DNA of 64,000 nt from Patescibacteria group bacterium. GTDB lineage: Bacteria; Patescibacteriota; Doudnabacteria; UBA920. The position numbers and the translations under genes are program-made. Below the pieces are notes generated by a model. That model did no database searches. It saw only the letters and a list, made by a program, of their open reading frames with translations, and was not told where the DNA came from. The stretch covers positions 86 through 64,085 of the forward strand of contig WARV01000001.1 in assembly GCA_013387205.1 (NCBI GenBank), read 5' to 3'. Within the stretch, counting starts at the first letter, position 1. Each line of letters starts with the position of its first letter. Below are positions 1 to 37,123 of this stretch, piece by piece.

Positions 1-64
1 CGGCGGCGAGGTCGGCGGCGAGGTCGGCGGAGTCGGCGGAGTCGGCGGCGAGGTCGGCGGCGGC
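1..64. repeat. GC-rich tandem repeat of 9/12-bp units, (CGGCGG[CG]AGGT)n
   Basis: Direct reading: cggcggcgaggt units repeated about 5 times, in strong contrast to the AT-rich remainder of the window. Frame 2 encodes (GGEV/GGV)n and terminates at TAA 65-67. Confidence 0.8.
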
Positions 65-12410: not shown

Positions 12411-12782
12411 ATGAAAGAACAAGTGATAGGGAAAGAGCATTGGAACGTTGATAACGGGGATTTTAAGGGATTATGGGCTATCAATCCGGAAATGGCTCAA
12501 GGTGCTGACATTTGGCAGAAGATTGATGAGATTGTGATTGCCTACTCAAAATTAAATCCTGGCGAAGTTTTCTTGACCATACTGGAGAATAAAGCAGAAT
12601 CCGCAAGGCTCATGCACGAAACAGGGAAAACCAAGGGCGGAACGATGAGGTACGGTGCAGCATGGCCTCTGGGATTGTGGGTAAAGATAAAGCAACTCGC
12701 GCCGGACTTGTTTTTAAACAAGAAAAACTTCCATAAACTCTTAAGGAAATATCCAGGATTTACTATCGCAAAAAAAATATGA
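12411..12782 (+). CDS. Hypothetical protein
   Basis: Internal ATG at 12411 after the capsid terminator hairpin. Track ORF 12330..12782. Confidence 0.4.
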   Translation: MKEQVIGKEHWNVDNGDFKGLWAINPEMAQGADIWQKIDEIVIAYSKLNPGEVFLTILENKAESARLMHETGKTKGGTMRYGAAWPLGLWVKIKQLAPDLFLNKKNFHKLLRKYPGFTIAKKI

Positions 12783-15109
12783 AAACACTCTCTCTTTGTT
12801 TAATAGTTACCGCTGAAGATTTTAAAAAAGCCCTACCTGCCATAGAACAAATTAAGCCATTTGTAAATGAAGTTTGCATTACGGTCACGGACAGGACGGA
12901 AGGGTACGAAGATGGTGATAAATTAAAATTTTCTTACTTCAAATGGATTAATGATTTTGCCGCCGCTAGAAATTATAATTTTTCCCAAAGTTCTTGTGAC
13001 TGGATATTGTGGCTTGACGCTGATGACACTTTGGCTAATCCCGAAAAACTAAAAGGGTTAGTCCAATATGCGGAAGATAATCGGGTAGAAGGATATTACT
13101 TTTTATACAAATACGATTTTGACGCAAGCGGAAAATGCATAAACGAACACTGGAAAGCGCAGCTTCTTAAAAACAACGGGCATTTTAAATGGAAAGGCGC
13201 GATACACGAAGACCCTATCCAGGAACGCCCTGCAAGATGGGCGAAAGCTTACGATTGTGTTCGTATTCACCACTCCGACCACAAAAGGGGGAAGGAATCA
13301 AGCGAGCGCAATATGCGGATTCTGCTAAAGGAAAGAGAACGCGACCCCAAAGAGCCGAGAACCCTATTTTATCTAGGACGTGGATATATTGAATTGGAAG
13401 AATACCAAAAAGCCATTGACTGTTTAACTGAATACTTAGCCTTATCGGGATGGGATGACGAAAGGTATGAGGCAAGGCTGTTGATTGGAAGCTGTTTCAT
13501 GAGGACAAAACAGCATGAAGAAGCCTTGGGTTGGTATAACTCGGCTATTTTGGAGAAGGAAGAGTATCCAGACGCCTATATCCAAAAGGGCATGGCCTAT
13601 TTAAAGCTTGAAAAATGGGGACAAGCGCTTTCAAATTTTAAAACTGCCTTGGGTATGAACATCCCGGACGCTTCCACTTATTTCAACCCCATGCTTTACA
13701 AACGTGACTTATTCCTTGGAATCGCTTTTGCGTATTTGCAGATTGCCGAACTCGACCAGGCTTTGCCAGCAGTGCTGCAAGCTGAAAAAGCTGACCCAAA
13801 ATACCAAGAAACTTTGGATTTAAAAAAGATAATAGTTGAATTGAAATTTAAACACGATACTTCTAACCATTACGCCCGGTTAGCAAAATATTTAAAAGAC
13901 AAGAACCAGGAAGACAAGATTTTACCCTTATTATCTTCTGCACCGAAAGAACTGTTAGACGACCCTATTCTTCTTTCCTTGAAGTTCGCTTACCAGAAAC
14001 AATACACTTGGCCGGAGAAGTCAATTGCCGTTTATTGCGGTCCAACGGCTGAAAGCTGGACACCGGATTCACAGAATAACGGAGGGATAGGCGGAAGCGA
14101 AACCGCAGTAATCGAACTGACGAACAGATTGGCGGAAGATGGCTGGAATATCACAGTTTATAACCAATGCGACGCCCCGCCGGAAGGAAAGAGATACAGC
14201 AAGGTTTTATATAAAAATTACTGGACGTTTAACGTAGATGATGAATTTGATGTTTTGTGGGTTTGGAGATTGCCAGAACTTTTTGACTACGACTTGAATG
14301 CCAGACTGAAAATCTTAGATTTACATGATACCATGTCACCGGCAGATTTTACGCCTGAACGGGTGGCGAAAATGGACAAGATTTTTGTTAAGACAAATTT
14401 TCACCGTTCACTATATCCGAAAATCGCTGATGACAAATTCGTAATTGTCGGAAACGGGATTGATTTGAAGAGGTTTGAAGGAAAAGCAGAAAAAGACCCG
14501 CACCGATTCATGTATTCTTCCACACCAAACAGGGGGCTTGATACTCTGTTAAAGATGTGGCCGAAGATTAAAGAAAAAATCCCCGAAGCGACCCTGCATG
14601 TTTACTACGGTTGGAACACCTTTTACAAACTGGAGAAAAATAACCCAGAACGGATGATGTGGATGAAAAAAGTGCAGGAAATGATGAAACAGGACGGGGT
14701 AGTAGATCACGGGCGAGTTGGACAAAAAGAACTTGCCCAGGATATGTTAAAAACTTCCTTTTGGCTCTACCCCACTGACTTTCCGGAAATTGACTGCATT
14801 ACGGCCAAGGAAATGCAGGCAGCGGGAGTATATCCCATAACTTCTGGTTACGCAGCATTAGAAGAAAGCCAGATAAGTGGCATGAAGGTCAGGGGCGACA
14901 CTTACGACCCTGAGTGGCAAAAAGAATACATCAAGGAAGTGGTTAGTTATAAGGATGCAGAAATTAACCACGAGCATATTAAAACATTAAGTAAACAATT
15001 TTCTTGGGACAATGTAGCCCAAGTATGGAAGGAGCAATTAAATGGCGAAAGTTACAATAAAGAACTTGGGCGAGATTCAGCAAGCACCGAAGGAGAAATT
15101 TCAAATTAA
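12779..15109 (+). CDS. Multidomain glycosyltransferase: N-terminal GT2 (GT-A, WLDADD DxD motif), central TPR repeats, C-terminal GT1/GT4-like (GT-B)
   Basis: N-terminal LIVTAED...WILWLDADDTL, TPR-like repeats around residues 200-330, and a C-terminal region resembling group-1 glycosyltransferases. Confidence 0.7.
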   Translation: MKTLSLCLIVTAEDFKKALPAIEQIKPFVNEVCITVTDRTEGYEDGDKLKFSYFKWINDFAAARNYNFSQSSCDWILWLDADDTLANPEKLKGLVQYAEDNRVEGYYFLYKYDFDASGKCINEHWKAQLLKNNGHFKWKGAIHEDPIQERPARWAKAYDCVRIHHSDHKRGKESSERNMRILLKERERDPKEPRTLFYLGRGYIELEEYQKAIDCLTEYLALSGWDDERYEARLLIGSCFMRTKQHEEALGWYNSAILEKEEYPDAYIQKGMAYLKLEKWGQALSNFKTALGMNIPDASTYFNPMLYKRDLFLGIAFAYLQIAELDQALPAVLQAEKADPKYQETLDLKKIIVELKFKHDTSNHYARLAKYLKDKNQEDKILPLLSSAPKELLDDPILLSLKFAYQKQYTWPEKSIAVYCGPTAESWTPDSQNNGGIGGSETAVIELTNRLAEDGWNITVYNQCDAPPEGKRYSKVLYKNYWTFNVDDEFDVLWVWRLPELFDYDLNARLKILDLHDTMSPADFTPERVAKMDKIFVKTNFHRSLYPKIADDKFVIVGNGIDLKRFEGKAEKDPHRFMYSSTPNRGLDTLLKMWPKIKEKIPEATLHVYYGWNTFYKLEKNNPERMMWMKKVQEMMKQDGVVDHGRVGQKELAQDMLKTSFWLYPTDFPEIDCITAKEMQAAGVYPITSGYAALEESQISGMKVRGDTYDPEWQKEYIKEVVSYKDAEINHEHIKTLSKQFSWDNVAQVWKEQLNGESYNKELGRDSASTEGEISN

Positions 15110-15174
15110 ATATCATAGCGGAATTACAACCTTAGAAGATGTGATCAACCAGCTAAACGAACATTTTAAGGAAA

Positions 15175-16059
15175 ATGCCTAAGCTAAAGATTTCTTTTTT
15201 GTGGGATGGAGTGCGACTGCATTACGGCCAGAGATTTAAAGACGGGCTGTTTATGGCTCTTCAACACCTTAAGGAAAAGCATGAAGTTCGGATGTTTGAA
15301 CCTGACGAGATTGATAAAATAAATGGCTTTCGACCTGACGTGTTGCTGTATTGGGGTGCGTTGTGTGAGAATTCTAAACCCCTAGTTGCCTCTTACCCTT
15401 ATAAAAAAGCGATTTGTTTTGCCGGTGGACCGATTGAGCCAGGTAATGTGGACGGATTTGACCTTTACTTTACCGAATCAGAACAAAATGAATGGGAGTT
15501 TAAGGCTCTGAATAAACCATACATGAGGGCGTTTGGGGTAAATGAGGAACTGTATAAACCTTTACCATTAGAGAAAAAATATGACGCAATTTTCTTCGGC
15601 ACTCATGCGCTTTGGAAAAGGAATGACTTGTTTGCTAAAGCGGTTAAAGACAAAGGCGTGTCGATTGGCATTTTCCAAGACCACGAAAAAGAATGTTACC
15701 AAATCCCGCAAGCCGAGGGTTGTGAAGTCCATGACGAATTACCGAGGGAAGAAGTCGTTACGTTCATCAATCAAAGTCATATTGCCTTAAATACTGCTAA
15801 TTTCTGGGATGGGGGACAAAGGATGACCCTTGAGGCTATGGCTTGCGACGTTCCGCCGATAGTGATGAGCGATTCACCAAAAAACATGGAATATGTGGAT
15901 GAATCAGGGGTGGGGTTAGTAGTTGAACCAAACATAGAAGCGATAAGGGAAGCCATCGGAAGATTAAAAGGAACACAGGCGGGAAGAAAATACATTTTAT
16001 CAAAATGGACATCTAAACATTACGCTCAAAATTTAGAAAAAGGGCTATTACAATTATGA
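15175..16059 (+). CDS. Glycosyltransferase group 1-like (GT-B C-terminal-domain-like) protein
   Basis: Weak GT1-like C-terminal signature (...TLEAMACDVPPIV...). Embedded between the other glycosylation genes. Confidence 0.4.
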   Translation: MPKLKISFLWDGVRLHYGQRFKDGLFMALQHLKEKHEVRMFEPDEIDKINGFRPDVLLYWGALCENSKPLVASYPYKKAICFAGGPIEPGNVDGFDLYFTESEQNEWEFKALNKPYMRAFGVNEELYKPLPLEKKYDAIFFGTHALWKRNDLFAKAVKDKGVSIGIFQDHEKECYQIPQAEGCEVHDELPREEVVTFINQSHIALNTANFWDGGQRMTLEAMACDVPPIVMSDSPKNMEYVDESGVGLVVEPNIEAIREAIGRLKGTQAGRKYILSKWTSKHYAQNLEKGLLQL

Positions 16060-17126
16060 TTCCTATTTCCAAACCATCAGCCGACGACCAGACCAAACAA
16101 GATTTATTGGAAGTTTTAGATTCGGGCTGGTGGGGCAAGGGGCCAAAAGTTGAAGAATTTGAAAAAAAGTTTGCCGAATATGTTGGACAGCAATATGCCG
16201 TTGCTGTTAACTCCGCCACTTCTGCCCTGGATTTATGTTTAAAAGCTGCTGATATTTCCGGCGGCGAACTTTACACCACTCCATTGACTTTTGTTTCTGA
16301 CGCCATTGTGGGGGAGTGGAATAACATGACCGTGACGTTTGGAGATATCGACCCGGAAACACTCTGTTTAGACCCTAAAAGTTTTTATCCATCTAAAAAC
16401 ACTAAGGCGGTAATTGCAGTGGATTCTCATGGAAGGTTGGCTGACATTGATGGTTTTAGGAAAAAGTTTAACGGGTTGATTATTGAAGACGCCGCCCATG
16501 CCATGTACACCCCAGGAGCAGGAAAAGGTGATATGACCGTTTGGTCTTTCCAGGCAGTAAAGACTTTGCCTTGCGGTGACGGCGGCATGATTACCACTAA
16601 CAATAAGAAATATTACGACAAGTTAAAATCCTTAACTTGGTTAGGAATTGAAAAGCCAACATTCTCCCGTGTTTCAGACAAAGGCTACCAATGGGATTAC
16701 GATATTTTCCAATCAGGCATAAAAGCCTATATGAATGATTTAACGGCGGTAATTGGCCTTGGACAACTTAGAAGACTTGATGAAATGAACGCCTGGCGCA
16801 GGGGCATACAAGACCAATATAACGAAGCGTTTAAAAACCATCCACATATCAAGATTCCTGCTTATTCCCATACAGTTCAATATTATACGCCAAGATTTAA
16901 AGACCGTGACGAGCTATGCCAATACTTAGCTAGTAAAGGGATATGCAGCTCTGTCCATTTTAAACCTTTAACAGAGATGGATTACTGGCGCAAGCATTCC
17001 CGATCTGCTCCCATTCCTAATGTCTATCGAATTTGGCCTGAATTATTATCCCTGCCTGTGTATTACGGTTTAACTGGAGATGAAGTTAATCACATTATTA
17101 AAACAGTTCTTGATTTCTATGGCTAA
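16056..17126 (+). CDS. DegT/DnrJ/EryC1/StrS-family PLP-dependent sugar aminotransferase
   Basis: LDSGWWGKGPKVEEFEKKFAEYVG, IIEDAAHA, SFQAVKTL (PLP Lys) and GDGGMITTN. 4-nt overlap with the upstream gene. Confidence 0.85.
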   Translation: MIPISKPSADDQTKQDLLEVLDSGWWGKGPKVEEFEKKFAEYVGQQYAVAVNSATSALDLCLKAADISGGELYTTPLTFVSDAIVGEWNNMTVTFGDIDPETLCLDPKSFYPSKNTKAVIAVDSHGRLADIDGFRKKFNGLIIEDAAHAMYTPGAGKGDMTVWSFQAVKTLPCGDGGMITTNNKKYYDKLKSLTWLGIEKPTFSRVSDKGYQWDYDIFQSGIKAYMNDLTAVIGLGQLRRLDEMNAWRRGIQDQYNEAFKNHPHIKIPAYSHTVQYYTPRFKDRDELCQYLASKGICSSVHFKPLTEMDYWRKHSRSAPIPNVYRIWPELLSLPVYYGLTGDEVNHIIKTVLDFYG

Positions 17127-17700
17127 ACTGTCGGTCATTATTCCTCATTACCCATACGGTGACGAAATTAATAATAAGTTGGATGAATGTAGGAGCAAAC
17201 TGGAAAATTACGACGAACTTGTATTAGTTGTTAATCAGGGAATTGGTTTTGCAAAAGCAGTGAATTTGGGTTTTAAGATGGCAAAAGGTGATTTTCTGCT
17301 TTTAGTGAGTAATGACGTAATTTATACGGGCGGTGATATTCGGGATTTATGTGACCCAGAAGCAGTGACTTGTCCAGTAGTGAACGGAAGAAGGCAGGAA
17401 TTTTACGGATGCACCTTTTGCTTGCCGAGATGGGTATATGAAAAGATATGTGCCTTAAGAGGTGGAAAACAATTTTTAGATGAACAATTTGATATTGGTT
17501 TTTTTGAAGATGACAATCTAATTATGGAACTTCGCCAACTAAATATTCCTATGCGCTCAGTTAAAACAGTTTCCGCCGTAACCCAAGGCAGCCAGACTAT
17601 GAAGATTTTTGGTTCCGCTGACCCTTATAACAACAACCGCGCGAGATTTATTAAGAAATGGGGTGTAAGCAGTTCTAACCCGATTAAATATGAAGATTAG
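17119..17700 (+). CDS. Family 2 glycosyltransferase (GT-A)
   Basis: LSVIIPHYP, AKAVNLGFKMAKGDFLLLVSNDV and FFEDDNL. Start ATGGCTAA overlaps the DegT stop by 8 nt. Confidence 0.75.
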   Translation: MAKLSVIIPHYPYGDEINNKLDECRSKLENYDELVLVVNQGIGFAKAVNLGFKMAKGDFLLLVSNDVIYTGGDIRDLCDPEAVTCPVVNGRRQEFYGCTFCLPRWVYEKICALRGGKQFLDEQFDIGFFEDDNLIMELRQLNIPMRSVKTVSAVTQGSQTMKIFGSADPYNNNRARFIKKWGVSSSNPIKYED

Positions 17701-23280: not shown

Positions 23281-24981
23281 ATGCCTTATTCAGAAGTACA
23301 ACAAAATACACAAATCCCAACCAGTTTTAATACTGCCCAGTTTATCCAGCAAGCCAGGCAATCGGGAGTTTCCGATGACCAGACTTTACAATATTTACAG
23401 AGCAAAGGCCTAGTTCCGGCTTCTACTAACGTGCAAAACAACGTAGAAGGCGCACAATTACACGATACAGGTTCATTTGCAGGGAACGTGGTCAATAGCG
23501 CAGGAAACTTGCTTAGTGGCGTTGGCCAAGCGATTGTTCATCCGATTGACACTGTTACTAATATCGGTAAGGGGATTATCGGCACAGGGGAATATTTAGG
23601 CGCAGCCGTTACGGGTGGACCAAAACCAACTGGTGAAGCCGCGGATGTTGCTGCTAATATTGGAAACTTTATTAAGCAAAGGTATGGTTCTTTAGAAGCA
23701 GCTAAGACTACTGCTTATCAAGACCCAATCGGGTTTTTAGCCGACGCTTCTTTGGTGTTAGGTGGTGCTGGCGGTGCAATAGGGAGAGCTGGAGAAGTTT
23801 CAAAAGTCGGAGAGATTGCTAAAGCTGGGGAAATGATTGGCAGAGCAGGGGATGTAGCTAATCCGTTTACAATCGCTGGAAAAGTTTCCACACCTATCTT
23901 GCGACCAGTCGGTGAGTTCTTGGGTAATCAAGTCGCTAATATGCTAGGAACAACTACGGGAGTTGGTGGTAGTTCCATTCGTGGTGTATTTAATGCAGCC
24001 AAAGAAGGCAATCCAGAAGCTATGCAAGCGGTCAGGGGTAGTGTCGGTGCTGACCAAATTATTGAAGATGCCCAAAATGCTTTCAATAAGTTAAAGCAGA
24101 ATAAAAATATAACCTACCAGCAGCAGTTGCAAAAAGTTAAAAGTGTTGCCGGTGAAGTTGATTACCAACCAGCAGTAGAAGAATTTAGAAAGCAACTTAC
24201 AAATAACGGAATTACGGTAAAATCTGGAGAATTACAGTTTGAAAACGCTCGCGGTTTTCAGTCGTCGGGCGAACAAGCTATTTTGCAGAATGTTTACGAT
24301 AAAATGGAACGTTGGGGCGATATGCCTTCTAATACTACTCTTTATGGATTAGATACCTTAAAGCAACAACTGGGGGAATTTGTGGAAATGTCAAATGGCA
24401 AGTCTAAAGCTTTGATAGCTTCCACGAAAACCGCATTGTCCGATATTTTAAAACAAAGTGATGAATACAAGAACCTTGTCGAACCTTACGAATCCACCAG
24501 TAGACTAATTGATGAGATTAGAACTGATTTAATGAGTAAAAATCCCGAAACGGCATTAAAAAAACTCACTCAAGCAGTTAAGCAAGATAATGAGTATAGG
24601 CAATCGTTAATCGAGGAACTAAATAAGGTTTCTCAACAGGATATTATGGCAGAGTTGTCAGGTTTGAATATGTCTAAACTGGTGAATACAGGAAAGTTGT
24701 CTACTTTTTTAGAAATGGGAACAGCATTTTTACATCCTCATTTGTGGCCTATTCTATTAGCTTCGTCCCCAAGGATAGTAGCAGAATTTATGAATACATT
24801 AGGTTATTCTGCAAAACAAATTGACGCAGGGTTATCGGTTATCAAAACGATGAAGCTCGCTCAAGTAGCAACTGGTGCAAGCAGGATTACCTCTTCCCAA
24901 CAAAATACTGCCAAAAAGAAACAGGGGTCTTCGTCCGAGCCTGGTATTTTGAATAATCGTGTTCAACCGCAAAAGCAATGA
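23281..24981 (+). CDS. Putative tail/internal virion protein with coiled-coil and Gly-rich repeats
   Basis: Repeats AGGAIGRAGEVSKVGEIAKAGEMIGRAGDVA. Position in the late operon. Confidence 0.4.
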   Translation: MPYSEVQQNTQIPTSFNTAQFIQQARQSGVSDDQTLQYLQSKGLVPASTNVQNNVEGAQLHDTGSFAGNVVNSAGNLLSGVGQAIVHPIDTVTNIGKGIIGTGEYLGAAVTGGPKPTGEAADVAANIGNFIKQRYGSLEAAKTTAYQDPIGFLADASLVLGGAGGAIGRAGEVSKVGEIAKAGEMIGRAGDVANPFTIAGKVSTPILRPVGEFLGNQVANMLGTTTGVGGSSIRGVFNAAKEGNPEAMQAVRGSVGADQIIEDAQNAFNKLKQNKNITYQQQLQKVKSVAGEVDYQPAVEEFRKQLTNNGITVKSGELQFENARGFQSSGEQAILQNVYDKMERWGDMPSNTTLYGLDTLKQQLGEFVEMSNGKSKALIASTKTALSDILKQSDEYKNLVEPYESTSRLIDEIRTDLMSKNPETALKKLTQAVKQDNEYRQSLIEELNKVSQQDIMAELSGLNMSKLVNTGKLSTFLEMGTAFLHPHLWPILLASSPRIVAEFMNTLGYSAKQIDAGLSVIKTMKLAQVATGASRITSSQQNTAKKKQGSSSEPGILNNRVQPQKQ

Positions 24982-25032
24982 TTATTAAGATAACTAATGA
25001 AGCTAGTGGCATAAATTTAGTTACTAAATACC

Positions 25033-25752
25033 TTAATTATTAACTGGTATTACTTGGTTAGTGATAGTATTGATGAACTTAAAATTTCTCAAGATAATTT
25101 GTGCGTCGGTAATTCCCGTGTAGTTTGGTATCATTGGCAATCTGACTTCACCAGAAAGCTTGTCAGTAGTAACGACAACCTTTTGATTTAAATTGTTTAC
25201 TGGTGCGATATCAATATTTGCTTGAATGAAATTATTATTCTGTATTCCATTAACCAGTACATACGGATTAGGCAAAATACCGGGTTTTAAACTAACCAAT
25301 GCATCAAAAGTTAAAGTGTTGTAACCCTCGGTATTTTCTTTGTTACTGGAGCAAGTATAAGTTCCGCCAACATTAAAATATGTAGTCTGACAATGGAATA
25401 CTAAAGGAGTAGTGACTGGCGTGGTGGTCTGGTTGGATGACGGAGTTTCAACTGTACCTGCCGGTTGAGGAACATACACAGGGACATAAACAGTTTCGGG
25501 TGTTGATTGCGGAACAGGAGATTGTCCAGAAGTTTGAGGTAGAGAACCTAAGCCTAAAGCTTGCCTAGTAGTAACTGTACCATCTTTCTTTAAGCACTCG
25601 CTATTCATAAAACAGATATATTGCGGTTCGGTAATTGAAACAGTAGTGTCAAAGATATTTCCGTCCAAAAATCCCATTAAAGCAGCTTTCGCAGGAGTAT
25701 ATATAGTGAAACCTAAAATAGCAAAAACCGCATAAAACAATGTTTTTTTCAT
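25033..25752 (-). CDS. Secreted protein with signal peptide and Thr/Pro-rich linker (moron on the opposite strand)
   Basis: N-terminal MKKTLFYAVFAILGFTIYTPAKA signal-like segment. It is the only minus-strand gene within the phage late region. Confidence 0.55.
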   Translation of the reverse strand: MKKTLFYAVFAILGFTIYTPAKAALMGFLDGNIFDTTVSITEPQYICFMNSECLKKDGTVTTRQALGLGSLPQTSGQSPVPQSTPETVYVPVYVPQPAGTVETPSSNQTTTPVTTPLVFHCQTTYFNVGGTYTCSSNKENTEGYNTLTFDALVSLKPGILPNPYVLVNGIQNNNFIQANIDIAPVNNLNQKVVVTTDKLSGEVRLPMIPNYTGITDAQIILRNFKFINTITNQVIPVNN

Positions 25753-25917
25753 AAATTTGTTTTAGTTAATTGACAATTTAGTTATAGACCCAATTAATTA
25801 TTTTGTCAAATTTAAAAGGGGCCTCTCGCTGAGTAAGCAGCGATTAGCCCATAAGACTAACCCATCTGCTTACTCAGACGTTACCCATAACTTATACCTA
25901 ATTAAATTTCTTGTCAA

Positions 25918-26178
25918 ATGGCAAACTTTACCACCCAAACTAAATCCGCATCTGTTTTTACAGGACAAGCCAAATCTTCTGCTCCGACTTTTGCCAATGC
26001 CACCAAAAATTCGGCATCGTTTTCCATAGTTGACAAATTGGTTTTGCTACTTCAGGAAATGGGCGATTTTCTTTTAATGGAAAATGGGGATTTTATTCTA
26101 GTTCGTGGTGTTAGCGATTACGGTTTTGCAAATCCTTCTAAAAACAACAGTTCATTTACCAATTTAACTAAAAACTAA
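25918..26178 (+). CDS. Hypothetical small protein
   Basis: ORF track entry. Precedes the fibre gene. Confidence 0.35.
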   Translation: MANFTTQTKSASVFTGQAKSSAPTFANATKNSASFSIVDKLVLLLQEMGDFLLMENGDFILVRGVSDYGFANPSKNNSSFTNLTKN

Positions 26179-27203
26179 TGGCAAATAAGAAAATATCAGA
26201 ATTAACAACTGGAACACCCCAAAATACTGATTGGGTTCCTTTTGTTGACATAGCAGCCGGAGAAACAAAAAAAGCCACCAAGTCTGATTTGAAAGGTGAT
26301 AAGGGTGACACCGGAAACGCCGCCACTGTAAATGTCGGCTCAACCACTACAGGGGCAGCAGGCACTTCGGCTTCCGTTACCAATTCCGGCACGACTTCTG
26401 CCGCTATCCTAAACTTTACTATTCCAAGGGGAGATACAGGGGCAACCGGAGCGACAGGGGCAACTGGCCCACAAGGGGCAAAAGGAGACACTGGAAATAC
26501 AGGTGCAACAGGGCCACAGGGTATCCAAGGCATTAAAGGTGATAAGGGCGTAAACTGGAAAGGCGCATATAGCGGTTCAACTGCCTATATTATCGACGAC
26601 GCTGTTTCTTACAATGGCAGTTCTTATGTTTGTATATTAGCTTCCACCGGAAACTTACCTACCAATACGACTTATTGGAATTTGATGGCGCAAAAGGGTG
26701 CGGATGGCTCAGGTTCCGGTTCCGGCGACGTTACCGGCCCCGCTTCCTCCACAGATAACGGCATAGTTAGATTTGACGGCTTGACAGGCAAGATAATCCA
26801 AAACTCTACTAACGTTGTGATTGATGATTCAGGCAACGTCGGGATTGGGACGACGAATCCGAGCGAAAAATTAGATGTAAATGGCAACATCACGAATGAA
26901 TATTTGACTTTAGCGGGAAACCAATTCAATGCGGTGGGAACTTCCAATGAAATCGCCGTAAATTATGCTAATAAAACAAAAGATTTGCATGTTTATACAA
27001 ATGTGGGAAACGGATTTTTGGTACAAGGAAGCAGCGGCAACGTCGGCATTGGGACGACTACACCAACAGCCTACCTCCATTTAAAGGCCGGTACAGCCAC
27101 GGCAAACACCGCTCCGATTAAATTAACCGCAGGTGTTGTGAATACTACCCCAGAAACAGGAACTATTGAATTTGATGGGACAGATTTCTATTTAAACATT
27201 TAA
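26178..27203 (+). CDS. Tail fibre protein with collagen-like Gly-X-Y repeats
   Basis: GDKGDTGNAAT...GDTGATGATGATGPQGAKGDTGNTGATGPQGIQGIKGDKG, with two GIGTT(N/T)P repeats at the C-terminus. Confidence 0.7.
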   Translation: MANKKISELTTGTPQNTDWVPFVDIAAGETKKATKSDLKGDKGDTGNAATVNVGSTTTGAAGTSASVTNSGTTSAAILNFTIPRGDTGATGATGATGPQGAKGDTGNTGATGPQGIQGIKGDKGVNWKGAYSGSTAYIIDDAVSYNGSSYVCILASTGNLPTNTTYWNLMAQKGADGSGSGSGDVTGPASSTDNGIVRFDGLTGKIIQNSTNVVIDDSGNVGIGTTNPSEKLDVNGNITNEYLTLAGNQFNAVGTSNEIAVNYANKTKDLHVYTNVGNGFLVQGSSGNVGIGTTTPTAYLHLKAGTATANTAPIKLTAGVVNTTPETGTIEFDGTDFYLNI

Positions 27204-29880: not shown

Positions 29881-30111
29881 ATGCAAGAAGAATCATTGGA
29901 GGTAAAACTCGCAAGATTAGACGAAAAATTAGATTTTGTCCTTAGAGATATAAAGGAATTAAAAGACGATACAAAATTGCGGGTAGATAAGCTTGAAACA
30001 CGGGTGGATAGGTTGGAAAAATCAGCCGGATTGTTTAAGGTTGTGGCCTGGGGCTATTACGTTATTGGTGCCGGTGTTATTGGTTTGCTCATTTATCATA
30101 TAGCGAAATAA
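29881..30111 (+). CDS. Coiled-coil protein with C-terminal TM helix (holin/spanin-like candidate)
   Basis: Heptad-like N-terminus and a C-terminal VVAWGYYVIGAGVIGLLIYHIA. Immediately upstream of the peptidase genes. Confidence 0.4.
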   Translation: MQEESLEVKLARLDEKLDFVLRDIKELKDDTKLRVDKLETRVDRLEKSAGLFKVVAWGYYVIGAGVIGLLIYHIAK

Positions 30112-30113
30112 TT

Positions 30114-30983
30114 ATGATTACAGGATGTTTACCAGATGAATTTGATAGTCGAGATTTTAAAGCCGAACCGCTTTTAGGCGCTTCTCCGGCTGTTGATTTT
30201 GAAAATAACCCATTATTTTTACCTAAGCCTCCGCTTTGGAATCAACAATCTTCCGATTCTTGCGTGGCTGCGGCTTGGAGTTATTACAAGTGGCAGTTAA
30301 GGAATAAAAGTTATTGCCGCAAGTCTATTTTTGCTTACATCGCGCAACAGTACGGGGCTTACATTCGGGACGGGGGACTAAGGGTAGTTAAATATGGAGT
30401 AGAAACCACGGACGAAACTCCAGACCCGGAGATTAGGACACCGGAAACAATGAGGGACAAGACTGGGCTTAATGAAAAGGACGCCTTAGACGACAGGGAA
30501 TTAGATAGTAAGATTGTCCCTAATAATATTGACGACACGGCTAAGGCTATTAGGGATTATAAAGGTGTTGTATTCGGAGTTACCGGACACAATGAGGGGT
30601 GGATAGATAAATCTAATCCTACGCCCCCGCCGCCGACCACGATGTCTGATAAGTTATGGGGACACGCTTTGTATTTATATGGCTACCACCTCCACGACGG
30701 GCAGAAGTGCGTTTTAGCCCGTTCTTCCTGGGACGAGTTAGACCATCACATTAAAGAGGAATATTTTTCCAGCGGAAATACTTTTTCGCCTTGGACACTT
30801 ATTCCGAGAAAGGACAACATGATAAAAAAGTTTATAGTGCAGGACGGTTCAAAATTAGGAGTGATGCTATTAGAGGGTGAAACCGGCATAGTGCAGTTTG
30901 CGCCGGATATGGATTCCTTTAAGAAACTTAGCGAAGTCGCTAAACTAGACACCCAAACTAAGACCATCGCCATACCGGAGTAG
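30114..30983 (+). CDS. Papain-like (C1-like) cysteine peptidase, putative lysis/cell-wall peptidase
   Basis: QQSSDSCVAAAWSYY matches the Q...C...W active-site region. LWGHALYLYGYH matches the His motif HAVxxVGY. SSWDE is a near-match to the NSWG box. Confidence 0.5.
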   Translation: MITGCLPDEFDSRDFKAEPLLGASPAVDFENNPLFLPKPPLWNQQSSDSCVAAAWSYYKWQLRNKSYCRKSIFAYIAQQYGAYIRDGGLRVVKYGVETTDETPDPEIRTPETMRDKTGLNEKDALDDRELDSKIVPNNIDDTAKAIRDYKGVVFGVTGHNEGWIDKSNPTPPPPTTMSDKLWGHALYLYGYHLHDGQKCVLARSSWDELDHHIKEEYFSSGNTFSPWTLIPRKDNMIKKFIVQDGSKLGVMLLEGETGIVQFAPDMDSFKKLSEVAKLDTQTKTIAIPE

Positions 30984-31013
30984 AATGCGAAATTTTTAAA
31001 AGGCTGTCTGCTT

Positions 31014-31436
31014 TTGGGATTCGGGATTAGCTTGCTAGTCGTGTTTCCAGAAAAAGCCGTTAGCCTGACAACGCCTCCGCCTGAATTTCCAGTATTAGTC
31101 GCTGATCCAAATATAACCGATAGGTTATATGACGAATGGCGGATGGTAAGAAAAAAGGTTAATAGTGATTACTGTTCCTGTGTCGATACCGCCCGTGCCT
31201 TGTCGGGAATAAATGTCGGACCAATAGGGTATGCTAAAAATCATCCTATTAATTCCAATACCCCAAATGTAGGAGCGATAATCGTAACAAGCGAAAGTTA
31301 TTACGGACACCTAGGAGTGGTGATTGCTATAAACGGTGATACTCTCACAATTCAAGAAGGAAATTATTTCAAATGCCAATTATCCAGCCGAAAAATAAGC
31401 ACAAACTACGACAAGATTATTGGCTATTACCATTAA
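31014..31436 (+). CDS. CHAP-domain peptidoglycan peptidase/amidase (endolysin-like)
   Basis: Cys in DYCSCVDTARAL and His in YGHLGVVIAINGDTLTIQEGN, at CHAP spacing. Confidence 0.55.
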   Translation: MGFGISLLVVFPEKAVSLTTPPPEFPVLVADPNITDRLYDEWRMVRKKVNSDYCSCVDTARALSGINVGPIGYAKNHPINSNTPNVGAIIVTSESYYGHLGVVIAINGDTLTIQEGNYFKCQLSSRKISTNYDKIIGYYH

Positions 31437-31488
31437 TTTATTTAGCAACATTAATCTATTGGCTGTTTATTTATACAGCCCTAAACCA

Positions 31489-31656
31489 ATGAACACTAAA
31501 CTCAAATTAGCCTTTCACTTATTGGCTCAAATCTTAGTGCAGGGAGCCGTGGCCGCTTTAGTTCCGCAAGGCGGGGAAAAGTATTATGCCGCAGTAGTTG
31601 CCATTGTCGGAGTCGTCGTTGCTTTCTACGACAACCAAACTGCCCAACAGCCGTAG
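31489..31656 (+). CDS. Small membrane protein (holin/antiholin-like candidate)
   Basis: Hydrophobic segments LAFHLLAQILVQGAVAALV and AAVVAIVGVVVAFY. The track ORF begins at a TTG at 31420; ATG 31489 is preferred. Confidence 0.35.
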   Translation: MNTKLKLAFHLLAQILVQGAVAALVPQGGEKYYAAVVAIVGVVVAFYDNQTAQQP

Positions 31657-33746: not shown

Positions 33747-34020
33747 GAAACATAAAAGTTTTTTTGACGTTTTAATATACGATTTGACAGCTTTTTAAAA
33801 TAGGCGTATACCTAAGACATAATAAACTAAATAACCACTTATAACCTGTTAAATCGGGTTGCCCCAAATAAAGGGGGCTTGCGGATAAGTGATCAGACTA
33901 AAGGCCATTATTTGTGATACAATAAGAGCCTAGCCCTAAGTTTGGAAACAAAAATAGTGGCCAAAATTCTGTCTGTCACCATAAAGCCCGCAAGCTGAGT
34001 GGTTGGCAGGCAGTTTTTTT

Positions 34021-34890
34021 ATGAACAACGCGATTGTTACTTATTTGGAGTGGAAGGGGATAGCCCATGAGAGAGCATCTAAAGCCTATATAAAACCATT
34101 ACACAGGCTGGCTGAATATTTAAACAAAAAAGTTAGTGAACTTACTACGGATGATGTAAAAAAGTTCCTCAAATATTTAAAAGAGGAGCTTCCCAAGCTG
34201 TCTACAAGGGGGGATTGGCGCACAAACTTTTATTTCCATACGAATGTCATCCGTGATTTTATTAAACATTGGAATGATGAGGGGGTGTGTAATGTAAGGC
34301 CAGGAATTATCGAGGTTCCCAAGTACAGTTTCAACCCTTACCCATCGGTTACTATTGAAGAATTTGAGATGATGGATGATTATCTAGCCACCGAGCCAGA
34401 CAATTTTGCCAATCTTCAGAAACGGATGATTATACACTTTTTATGGTGGACGGGCGTTAGGGTATCAGAGCTTACCGATTTAAGATGGACTATTATTAAC
34501 CAATCCGAGCAGGGATTACCAATAAAAAATAAAAAGAACGGTGATATCAGATATATATTTTGGCCACCCCAAACCCACTTACTGCTTTTAAGATTTATCA
34601 GGGAAAGAAAACAGTTTACTGGGAATAGCCTATTAGTGACTTACCTGGGGAAAATGCACCCTCGCTGTGTCCAAAGGTTTTTAGAAAATTTAGGGAAAAA
34701 ACTGGGGATAACTTACCACCTATCACCACACTGTTTTCGTCAGGGTTGGGCAAAATATAGGTTGGAAAAGGGGGCGGATCTAAAACTAATAAAAGACGGA
34801 TTAGGCCACACTTCTTACGATTCTACGGACAGATACTTAATACTAAATTATAAACTGCAAAGGGAAAGAGCGGTGAAATATTTGACATAA
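34021..34890 (+). CDS. int: Tyrosine site-specific recombinase (phage integrase)
   Basis: Catalytic residues in context: TGVRVSEL (Arg), HCFRQGWA (His-x-x-Arg), LGHTSYDSTDRYL (His, Tyr). The track starts at 34003; ATG 34021 is preferred. Confidence 0.85.
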   Translation: MNNAIVTYLEWKGIAHERASKAYIKPLHRLAEYLNKKVSELTTDDVKKFLKYLKEELPKLSTRGDWRTNFYFHTNVIRDFIKHWNDEGVCNVRPGIIEVPKYSFNPYPSVTIEEFEMMDDYLATEPDNFANLQKRMIIHFLWWTGVRVSELTDLRWTIINQSEQGLPIKNKKNGDIRYIFWPPQTHLLLLRFIRERKQFTGNSLLVTYLGKMHPRCVQRFLENLGKKLGITYHLSPHCFRQGWAKYRLEKGADLKLIKDGLGHTSYDSTDRYLILNYKLQRERAVKYLT

Positions 34891-34919: not shown

Positions 34920-35075
34920 ATGGCTTATCCAAAAAACGAAGAACGAAATAAAGACTTGGTGAAGAAGCGTAAAAAAGACCCTAAGAAATGGACGTGGGGA
35001 GCTTTAGCTAAACATTTCCGAGTGGCTCGCCCTACCGCTGTTCAAATTTATAAGCGATGGGAGCATATTTATTAA
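34920..35075 (+). CDS. Small basic HTH-like protein (51 aa; Xis/regulator candidate)
   Basis: Hand translation gives MAYPKNEERNKDLVKKRKKDPKKWTWGALAKHFRVARPTAVQIYKRWEHIY. Sits immediately after int. Confidence 0.35.
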   Translation: MAYPKNEERNKDLVKKRKKDPKKWTWGALAKHFRVARPTAVQIYKRWEHIY

Positions 35076-35100: not shown

Positions 35101-35129
35101 TTGACAAGTGTTAGTGCTTGGTATATAAT
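35101..35129 (+). promoter_or_regulatory. Perfect consensus sigma70 promoter, TTGACA-17 nt-TATAAT
   Basis: TTGACA at 35101-35106 and TATAAT at 35124-35129 with an exact 17-nt spacer. The spacer contains one copy of the 12-bp direct repeat TGTTAGTGCTTG (35078-35089 and 35110-35121). Confidence 0.55.
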
Positions 35130-35932: not shown

Positions 35933-37123
35933 TTAATTTCCACCATTTTGTTTATAGCATCCTAAAATTTTAGGCGCATAGTTTCTTGTTTCGTTATAGC
36001 CAGTATTACACGTAGCAGTGGATCCTTGTGGGCCATTATAGAGACATTCCCATTTCTTTGTCGGCTGTCCTGCGCAGTCGTTTTGCCCTGCGCAAGTGAC
36101 GCTGTTTTGGCAGGCCATGCTGCCTCCGTTGTATCCAGCGGCGATATTTCTAACGTCGTTGCCGCAGCCATTGCGGCTAAGCAACTCTAAATATTTTGCT
36201 CCGATGCAAATGCTCTTGGTCGCGTTATTTGGGTTATTAAGCCATGCGCATGTTATGTTATCTGTCACTCCGCATGATGATTTTAAGTTGTTTGCCGTCT
36301 GGGGCAAAAGCTGCATAAGTCCGCACGAACCTGCATTAGATGTTGAATTTATATTACAACTCGATTCATTAACCATAATGGATTTAATTAGCGCTTCAGT
36401 ATTAATTCCTGGGATGCTGATTGCCGCAGCTGCATCCTTTATTGCAGTCCCATAATTGTTGCAATTGCTGTTCCAGCAAGTTACGTTTGCTGCTTGGCAC
36501 AAGTTGGCTGCTGTCATACTACTTACATTGGAACATGACCCATTGACTGAATTAACGCCAGCCTGATCGCGGGCAACGCCCTGGTATAAATTGGCAGTCG
36601 GAGCTTCCATTAACTCCAATCTTACACTCTGCGGCTGGATATTTTGGAATTTGACCAGGTCAGGATTAATAGCTCTTAGGAAGATAAAGCCAATGAATAA
36701 AATGATTAAGGATGTTACGGTACTGACTAATATGTTTTTCGCTTTGTCTACCGATTCCTGGCTGCCATCTGCAGACATATAAATATATCCGGCTATAACA
36801 ATAAAAAATACGCCGATTATGGAAGCTAAGATTATGGAAAAGCGATAAAGCCTGTTGATGCAGGTGTAAAGGTCGTTTTGGGCAGCATTATTTGCACCTA
36901 CTTGGCTGTCTGACCCGGTACCGAAAAAACTGCCGTTTTGGCTCCAATATTTTCCTTGGTTATTTTCAGTCGGCGCGCACAAATATTGTTTAATTTGGTC
37001 AGACACATGGTACTGGGTGTAATTTGGCGAGCTGCTAGTTTGTGCAAAAGCTAAATTTGCATAAGACAAAATAACTTGGACAAGAAGAAATGCCAAAAGA
37101 TATGTTTTTAATTTATTGGTCAT
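35933..37123 (-). CDS. Secreted/membrane-anchored lytic transglycosylase (SLT domain)-like protein with Cys-rich C-terminus
   Basis: N-terminal hydrophobic signal, an internal TM helix, and the SLT-like motif VNESSCN...AGSCGLMQLLPQTA. Confidence 0.55.
   Translation of the reverse strand: MTNKLKTYLLAFLLVQVILSYANLAFAQTSSSPNYTQYHVSDQIKQYLCAPTENNQGKYWSQNGSFFGTGSDSQVGANNAAQNDLYTCINRLYRFSIILASIIGVFFIVIAGYIYMSADGSQESVDKAKNILVSTVTSLIILFIGFIFLRAINPDLVKFQNIQPQSVRLELMEAPTANLYQGVARDQAGVNSVNGSCSNVSSMTAANLCQAANVTCWNSNCNNYGTAIKDAAAAISIPGINTEALIKSIMVNESSCNINSTSNAGSCGLMQLLPQTANNLKSSCGVTDNITCAWLNNPNNATKSICIGAKYLELLSRNGCGNDVRNIAAGYNGGSMACQNSVTCAGQNDCAGQPTKKWECLYNGPQGSTATCNTGYNETRNYAPKILGCYKQNGGN

Follow-up and report, generated by a model that had tools for sequence, protein, structure and literature searches.

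The 64-kb stretch of contig WARV01000001.1 analyzed here, referred to as the window (all coordinates are window positions), carries at 25033-25752 on the minus strand a gene, hereafter the target, for a 239-amino-acid (aa) protein that is predicted to be exported. The list of open reading frames (ORFs) and scans against Pfam and PHROG showed that positions ~1-35 kb are a prophage read almost entirely on the plus strand, and the target lies antisense among the structural genes of this prophage, between a large virion protein and a collagen-like tail fibre. A preliminary description of the same DNA, made from the sequence alone, had taken the target for a moron, possibly with a lysogenic-conversion function. 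Our analysis indicates that the target founds a protein family that recurs at one position in very divergent phages, and we tentatively propose that it modifies the host surface to exclude competing phages.

Identification of the target gene

The target and its immediate neighbours are as follows.

25033-25752, minus strand: gene for a 239-aa protein, predicted to be exported; founding member of a new family (homologues P0022-P0040); ATG start, TAA stop at 25033-25035
23281-24981, plus strand: 566-aa virion protein of the ejection or tail-hub type (homologues P0003-P0021); convergent neighbour of the target
25918-27203, plus strand: genes for an 86-aa protein and a 341-aa collagen-like tail fibre, divergent neighbours of the target; the fibre matches Pfam Collagen and CBM_5_12 and PHROG tail-fibre families
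26178, plus strand: start of the collagen-like tail fibre

The preliminary description had given the gene these limits and this strand and had called it the only minus-strand gene in ~35 kb. Both statements hold: the ORF starts with ATG and encodes 239 aa exactly as claimed, and any further minus-strand ORF of 80 aa or more in 1-35000 is nested inside a longer plus-strand ORF; only a hydrophobic ORF of 41 aa immediately downstream (24887-25012, minus strand) has to be added.

An exhaustive phmmer search of 1.84 billion cluster representatives returned 19 relatives, which are 144-276 aa long, reach E-values as low as 4e-31 and are similar to the target over approximately residues 1-125 only; the family thus comprises 20 representatives including the target. 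Because of these homologues, we judge 25033-25752 to be a genuine gene and not a chance ORF. The GC content of the target is 0.368, as against 0.42 for the prophage, which places it in the lowest 7% of 720-nucleotide (nt) windows, a weak signal; in the other loci, the family gene lies 0-3 points under the GC content of its own locus.

The target matched nothing in Pfam, PHROG, PADLOC or the PDB sequences, and the same was true of its relatives except for one match to Pur_ac_phosph_N. A word-indexed protein search of 5.8 billion clusters recovered only the target itself, and the profile version of this search gave four proteins. IMG/VR gave no match to the target, to its 566-aa neighbour or to two profiles of the family, and neither did the GTDB representatives with the family profile nor the GenBank phages with tblastn; a scan of the JGI metagenomes returned one locus, which was identical to L011. 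No family member was found outside a phage context, and the family appears to be undescribed so far and restricted to phages.

Architecture of the protein and its family

The target protein consists of four parts: a signal peptide, a 45-aa domain with two Cys residues, a Pro/Thr/Gln linker and an orphan C-terminal domain.

25684-25752, minus strand: signal peptide, aa 1-23 (MKKTLFYAVFAILGFTIYTPAKA), with a predicted signal peptidase I cut after A21-K22-A23 (AKA/A) and no lipobox, from inspection and the family alignment
25549-25683, minus strand: conserved N-terminal domain, aa 24-68 (ALMGFLDGN...YICFMNSECLKKDG...TRQALGL), with the family signature and conserved C47 and C53
25399-25548, minus strand: Pro/Thr/Gln-rich linker, aa 69-118, with TVYVPVYVP at aa 87-95, from the alignment
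25036-25398, minus strand: orphan C-terminal domain, aa 119-239, with C121 and C134; predicted at low confidence to be all-beta; the variable module of the family

The classical signal peptide that had been proposed was recognized by inspection, with its n-, h- and c-regions and an AKA/A site: the n-region MKK is followed by a 16-residue hydrophobic core (maximum Kyte-Doolittle value of 2.5 over 10 residues) and by A-K-A at positions -3 to -1, and residues 5-13 are helical in the AlphaFold model. A small-x-A cleavage site immediately precedes the conserved LMGF motif in most of the 20 members. A lipobox, for which a check had been suggested, was not found: the pattern [LVI][ASTVI][GAS]C was absent from the first 35 residues of the target and of every family member (0/20), and the target is not a lipoprotein. 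Its product is predicted from sequence to carry a cleavable Sec-type signal peptide and no lipid anchor.

The N-terminal domain, which sits between the signal peptide and the linker and begins at the mature N-terminus, had been missed in the preliminary description. AlphaFold predicted five short strands in this domain with a predicted local distance difference test (pLDDT) score of 86-94. The family shares here the motif LMGFxDGxxYD..G..YICFxDGxCLxxD....TR..LGL, with two Cys residues 5-7 residues apart, and G27, F28 and C53 are invariant in the alignment of the 20 members; the target and P0022 share 57% identity over aa 8-127. The layout of the family is fixed: a signal peptide (MKK, hydrophobic core, small-x-A), a ~45-aa domain, a Pro/Thr/Gln spacer that usually contains TVYVPVYVP, and a C-terminal domain. 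The Thr/Pro/Gln-rich linker of the preliminary description is present at aa 69-118. The codons for VYVPVYVP vary at synonymous sites among the loci, which points to selection on the peptide and not on the DNA; the possibility that VYVPVYVP is a DNA recombination site for domain shuffling was rejected for the same reason.

The C-terminal domain (~100-170 aa) varies among members, and at least 12 types were distinguished in the 20 members. An all-against-all BLASTP comparison showed that only two types recur, one in five members and one in two, and that the other 13 members, including the target, are singletons. No homologue of the C-terminal domain of the target was found by phmmer among the 1.84 billion representatives. 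The beta-rich domain claimed for it has its only basis in an AlphaFold model with eight predicted strands; this model is of low confidence (pLDDT <50), and Foldseek hits for this domain are meaningless for that reason. The model of the five-member type (pLDDT 60-85) gave weak matches (best E = 0.013) that were uniformly to FN3/immunoglobulin (Ig)-like beta-sandwiches and carbohydrate-binding modules, with nothing at E <= 0.001 in Foldseek against the PDB, and the Pur_ac_phosph_N match of one further member, at 2e-4, is also to an FN3-like domain. On these models and this match, the variable modules look like binding domains rather than enzymes or toxins. The number of Cys residues is even in 20/20 members, with two in the N-terminal domain and zero, two or four in the C-terminal domain, a pattern expected of disulfide-bonded extracytoplasmic domains.

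Two origins of the variable domain were considered and rejected. As a decoy of the receptor-binding protein (RBP), the C-terminal domain would have been copied from the neighbouring fibre; no family C-terminal domain showed BLASTP similarity to the proteins of its own locus, even at E <= 1, and the decoy was rejected at the sequence level. The target was also rejected as the target of a diversity-generating retroelement, since no repeat of at least 24 nt involving 25033-25752 occurs within 1-36500; no reverse transcriptase was matched among the ~30 larger prophage ORFs scanned, a set that does not include the small ORFs of 1-6.5 kb.

Conserved antisense placement across phages

Seven genomic contexts were compared, namely the window and those of P0022 (L005-7), P0023 (L009), P0025 (L010/L011), P0024 (its contig), P0034 (L092) and P0026 (L093); DNA was at hand for six of them, the window and five other loci. 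The family gene is the lone gene antisense to its large neighbours in 7/7 contexts. It converges on the gene of a very large protein (546-1535 aa across the seven, one with an LPD38 domain) and, where the other side is visible, diverges from fibre-type genes encoding collagen-like, DUF2341/Laminin_G_3 or GNVGIGTT-repeat proteins. The gene order of L009 is that of the window: adaptor, 583-aa protein, two large proteins, antisense gene and collagen-like fibre.

The phages that carry the family diverge strongly from one another. BLASTP between the window and L005 matched the family gene alone, with 59% identity over 105 aa; between the window and L093, this gene was the best conserved and the sole match besides a weak lysin match. 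That the N-terminal half is better conserved than any virion protein suggests that its host target is under strong constraint or else that phages exchange the cassette.

In the distant loci, several large fibre-like proteins beside the cassette, of the GNVGIGTT-repeat and DUF2341/Laminin_G_3 types, have signal-peptide-like or membrane-anchor-like N-termini (L005 7272-9299, L010 2688-5012, L093 4772-6610 and L009 1-579, all on the minus strand), as do those at L005 5355-7271 and L093 2925-4772. Such N-termini are unusual for tail fibres, and the fibres of the window itself (26178, 27621 and 28166) do not have them.

Occupancy of the slot and the small downstream ORF

The closest relatives of the prophage were traced through homologues of the 566-aa neighbour (43-59% identity). 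In L001, the slot of the target holds an HNH_3 homing-endonuclease gene on the minus strand, and in L002 it holds two small minus-strand genes; in L004 and the P0005 contig, it is empty after the 566-aa homologue, so that the target sits between genes that are adjacent in related phages. The L003 contig ends too early for its slot to be scored. Small ORFs for membrane proteins were found at the following positions.

24887-25012, minus strand: candidate 41-aa single-pass membrane protein (MPLASLVILIIIAFAV...; MPLASLVILIIIAFAVEHDYSKY...), 20 nt downstream of the target; maximum Kyte-Doolittle value over 15 residues of 2.9
L001 9604-9729, L003 9679-9807 and L002 9742-9870, minus strand: two-pass ORF of the relatives, overlapping the 3' end of the gene for the 566-aa homologue by 38-89 nt

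The 41-42-aa two-pass membrane ORF of L001, L002 and L003 (MG.f.liLG.IVL.tGAVPFG.P...), on the minus strand, is mutually conserved and looks like a conserved gene that overlaps its neighbour in antisense; the 41-aa ORF of the window occupies the corresponding position. In the distant family loci, the gap that separates the family gene from the gene converging on it holds a strongly hydrophobic ORF (25-75 aa) whose sequence is not conserved, and a small membrane-protein ORF follows the family gene in 7/7 contexts. Since the contents of the slot vary while the small ORF recurs, the reverse-strand unit is best viewed as a pair, with a first gene that varies and then a small gene for a membrane protein; in the window, the former encodes the exported protein.

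This arrangement also bears on a polymorphic toxin or bacteriocin with its immunity protein, in which a conserved N-terminal part would serve for delivery, the variable C-terminal part would be the effector and the small membrane protein downstream would be the cognate immunity factor. The gene order and the variability agree with such a system, with its 12 or more C-terminal types and, right after the gene in every locus, an ORF for a small membrane protein that is not conserved. However, the C-terminal domains that can be characterized look like FN3/Ig beta-sandwiches and not like toxin folds, they are of ~100-150 aa and lack catalytic motifs, and the two-pass ORF is conserved in L001-L003 with no exported-protein gene upstream, which argues against strict toxin-immunity pairing. 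We regard a toxin as improbable.

Promoter-like sites and a stable hairpin

The preliminary description had pointed to 25753-25917 as the place for a promoter of the target's own, and two TTGACA sites with -10 elements were found there in silico, with a hairpin between them.

25781-25809, minus strand: proximal promoter-like site P2, TTGACA-17-TATAAC; the -10 element ends 28 nt before the ATG; aligns with the family-gene promoters of L009, L010 and L092
25891-25917, minus strand: distal promoter-like site P1, TTGACA-15-TATAAG; directly adjoins the start codon of the plus-strand gene that diverges from the target; closely resembles the element upstream of the family gene in L009
25827-25880, no strand assigned: very stable hairpin between P1 and P2, with a 12-bp perfect outer stem (CTGAGTAAGCAG/CTGCTTACTCAG) and a 9-bp inner stem

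Strong sites were defined as an exact TTGAC[AT], a spacer of 15-18 nt and a -10 element of the form T-A-n-n-n-n that matches TATAAT at four or more of six positions. Only nine such sites occur on both strands of the window (128 kb of two-strand sequence); two of them are in the 165-nt spacer upstream of the target, three are at the integrase end and two are in host DNA, and there is none in the ~30 kb of structural genes. Each of the five other loci with DNA has an equivalent site, that of L092 being a perfect TTGACA-16-TATAAT, and the pattern TTGAC[AT]-N12-14-GG-(-10) is common to the window and all five. The cassette promoters are predicted, from their sequence, to be of the host sigma-70 type and of the same class as those before the integrase.

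The three sites at the integrase end are on the plus strand, at 33784 before the integrase, at 34882 before a 51-aa helix-turn-helix ORF (34920-35075) and at 35101 in non-coding sequence. The last is a perfect TTGACA-17-TATAAT in a stretch of ~850 nt without a convincing ORF, Rfam match or tRNA match, and it may be the promoter of a small RNA that is not annotated or be situated within the attachment region. In two unrelated loci (L005 9300-9365 and L093 6855-6880), direct repeats of GTTTCAC(A/G)C occur upstream of the family-gene promoter; these may be an operator or a promoter element of the divergent gene.

The 133-nt spacer RNA that holds the hairpin folds at -39.5 kcal/mol (z = -5.4), and 0/200 shuffled sequences were as stable. 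The hairpin at 25827-25880 had no match in Rfam; leader hairpins are also found upstream of the family genes in L009, L010 and L092, and CGAGAG follows the hairpin in both the window and L092. A leader, an attenuator and an operator are candidates for its role. On the other side of the target, no intrinsic terminator was found on the minus strand in 24982-25032, where the preliminary description had proposed to look, or beyond it, and the downstream 276 nt fold no better than shuffled sequences (z = +0.96). The fibre genes downstream likewise showed no strong promoter on the plus strand, and late transcripts therefore presumably read through antisense to the cassette.

The position of the target within the structural block might suggest a fibre, a decoration protein, a chaperone or another virion or assembly component whose hydrophobic N-terminal segment is not a signal peptide, and the signal-peptide-like starts of the neighbouring fibre-like proteins in L005, L009, L010 and L093 leave room for another meaning of such N-termini. 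Against this, the gene is on the opposite strand in all contexts and has its own promoter, the small-x-A site stands right before the conserved domain, Cys residues are paired in 20/20 members, and the closest relatives lack the gene but retain the structural genes on either side of it. A virion component is the least probable of the explanations that we considered.

An accessory role in lysis or egress, with the small membrane protein as a holin or antiholin and the exported protein helping to breach the wall or S-layer, is very improbable as well. A small membrane protein beside an exported protein does resemble some lysis cassettes; however, the cassette is antisense to the late genes, its promoter is of a constitutive type, no enzyme domain was detected, and the prophage has a separate lysis block on the plus strand.

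29881-31656, plus strand: probable lysis block, with genes for a coiled-coil protein (76 aa, membrane segment at the C-terminus), a 289-aa protein, a CHAP lysin (140 aa) and a holin-like protein with two membrane passes (78 aa)

The 289-aa protein of this block has Cys/His peptidase-like motifs and no Pfam match.

Proposed role at the host surface

The label of moron is partly right. It agrees with the predicted promoter of the target and the variable occupancy of its slot, with the slightly low GC content as a weak signal, and disagrees with the lack of a detectable terminator. The loci compared show the cassette to be a feature that recurs at one set position in a group of phages, and not an insertion of the sporadic kind.

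By analogy with Llp of phage T5, we propose, at a probability of about 0.4, that the cassette is a prophage- or early-expressed surface modification, most plausibly for superinfection exclusion at the level of the receptor. Host RNA polymerase would transcribe the cassette in the lysogen, in early infection or in both, independently of late transcription and probably opposed by it. The target protein would be exported and would form one disulfide per domain on folding; its conserved N-terminal domain would dock on a conserved envelope component of the Patescibacteria cell, the linker would span the wall, and the variable beta-sandwich module would bind a strain- or phage-specific surface target. 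The outcome would be masking of the receptor, which would both exclude superinfecting phages and keep progeny from adsorbing to debris, and the small membrane protein may be an anchor or partner of the exported protein or a second exclusion factor.

Several observations weigh against superinfection exclusion. The target resembles no known exclusion protein in sequence or fold. Signal peptides were judged by inspection, and because the target has neither a lipid anchor nor a wall-sorting motif, its retention on the cell is an assumption. The module that would bind the surface target is, in the protein studied here, modelled only at the low confidence given above, and the missing minus-strand terminator counts on the same side. 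The 41-aa ORF of the window shares 95 nt with the 3' end of the convergent gene, which there encodes a C-terminal tail that is present but poorly conserved in homologues of the 566-aa protein. Its alignment with the ORFs of L001-L003 is weak and local, covering the second membrane segment and the tail with a score of 28; a search of the window for a frameshifted copy of their two-pass ORF gave only this similarity. Finally, the fibres of L005 and L093 are at most 37% identical, and the loci are mutually too divergent for co-variation of C-terminal domains and fibres to be followed.

The same architecture, with export, a spacer and a variable Ig/FN3-like binding module, would also fit a lysogenic-conversion adhesin, which would decorate the Patescibacteria cell and change its adhesion, to a bacterial host cell or a substrate, rather than block phages. 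Here the identity of the host matters. Its glutamyl-tRNA synthetase (GluRS) is 74% identical to that of a Patescibacteria metagenome-assembled genome and 68-69% identical to those of Candidatus Doudnabacteria genomes, and from these identities we take the host to be a bacterium of the Patescibacteria, or candidate phyla radiation (CPR), near Doudnabacteria; the CPR-like host guessed in the preliminary description is thereby borne out. The CPR includes episymbionts, and this affiliation, like the host-type promoter, is compatible with an adhesin. However, the constant position beside fibre genes in 7/7 contexts, all of them in phages, fits a function linked to phage receptors better, and neither a family member outside a phage context nor any sign of attachment was found. 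Among the alternatives to superinfection exclusion, an adhesin deserves the most weight, although we consider it unlikely.

A broader and still less likely proposal is that the family is a dedicated modular surface-display system of Patescibacteria phages, in which a docking domain, a fixed VYVPVYVP spacer, interchangeable binding modules and a small membrane-protein partner would reprogram the surface of an ultra-small host for receptor masking, episymbiotic attachment or both. The docking domain, being better conserved than any virion protein, would then probably recognize a conserved component of the CPR envelope.

To our knowledge, almost nothing is known about host recognition, entry or host protection by phages of CPR/Patescibacteria, and the same holds for what these cells carry on their surface. 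The conserved half of the protein must contact something conserved in the host envelope, and the variable half something that diversifies. Should the protein mask a receptor, its variable domain would lead straight to the receptor used by the phage; should it be an adhesin, it would be relevant to the way in which episymbiosis changes under lysogeny. In addition, the family is defined and testable and has a signature motif that can be used for mining CPR viromes, and its loci provide a natural set of promoters for a lineage with few genetic tools.

Other features of the prophage and its host

The following genes of the prophage were assigned in addition to those listed above.

6543, plus strand: large terminase (Pfam/PHROG scans)
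8014, plus strand: portal/adaptor-like protein (Pfam/PHROG scans)
11504, plus strand: SU10-type major capsid protein (Pfam, 1e-62)
12779-17700, plus strand: glycosyltransferase and aminotransferase genes inside the structural operon, between the capsid and adaptor genes
21078, plus strand: 733-aa tape-measure/lysin-like protein with a lysin-like segment
31014, plus strand: CHAP lysin of 140 aa (Pfam, 2e-7)
34003, plus strand: tyrosine integrase

The capsid protein is at most 35% identical to podovirus capsids in GenBank. The block at 12779-17700 encodes a GT2-TPR-GT4 fusion, a GT2 protein, a DegT-type aminotransferase and related proteins amid the structural operon; it is speculation that this block glycosylates the virion or the cell surface, with the Pro/Thr linker of the target as a possible substrate. 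At the very start of the window (4-60), there is a GC-rich tandem repeat with units of 9-12 nt (CGGCGAGGT / CGGCGGAGT) in surroundings of 42% GC. No tRNA or tmRNA was found in the window.

Cellular genes, including those for a fusion of a pilin with an SLT domain, an M23 peptidase, GluRS and QueA, begin at ~35.9 kb. The first host gene past the prophage (35933-37123, minus strand) encodes an N-terminal domain like that of type IV secretion system pilins fused to an SLT lytic transglycosylase, and it is followed by the gene for the M23 peptidase, which has a coiled coil; envelope-remodelling genes thus adjoin the integration site.

Comparison with known systems

The closest parallel in logic is with the receptor-blocking proteins of T5-like phages. 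Llp of T5 is encoded beside the receptor-binding gene, is expressed early and blocks FhuA, and Llp of BF23 is non-homologous to it and cognate to the RBP of its own phage, so that an RBP and its blocker form one functional module (PMC9586334, PMC4728585). The Llp proteins of T5 and BF23 and the Cor proteins of T1 and phi80 are, as is predicted of the target, exported proteins whose genes adjoin a receptor-binding or fibre gene and are expressed apart from the late structural genes, and non-homologous versions of them occur where phages use different receptors; in position and in the logic of polymorphism, they match the target family. However, Llp and Cor are lipoproteins of ~60-80 aa that act at the outer membrane of Gram-negative hosts, whereas the target is approximately three times larger, has no lipobox, combines a conserved N-terminal domain with a swappable C-terminal domain and shares no similarity in sequence or fold with them. 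CPR bacteria are thought to lack an outer membrane. With its different type of envelope, the likeness to Llp is thus an analogy of logic and not a sign of membership.

Lambdoid morons in or after the tail genes, such as HK97 gp15 and lambda lom and bor, resemble the target as extra, independently promoted genes placed between structural genes that are adjacent in relatives, with a product directed to the envelope and an expected role in exclusion or conversion. As a rule, such morons end in a terminator of their own and share the strand of the surrounding genes, whereas the target cassette has no detectable terminator, is antisense and recurs at one slot in very divergent phages. The Ltp protein of Streptococcus phage TP-J34, a prophage exclusion lipoprotein of a Gram-positive host, shares with the target a signal peptide, a flexible linker and extracellular domains, and it is expressed from the prophage and acts at the cell surface; however, Ltp is lipid-anchored, is encoded in the lysogeny module and is not homologous to the target.

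Polymorphic toxin-immunity cassettes likewise encode a protein whose N-terminal part is conserved and whose C-terminal part varies, with a small variable gene right behind; they differ from the target family in that the C-terminal domains of the latter look like binding beta-sandwiches and that its small ORF is found in relatives without the exported protein. Taken together, the target would be an element of a kind that is already known, an independently expressed, envelope-directed accessory gene beside receptor-binding genes.

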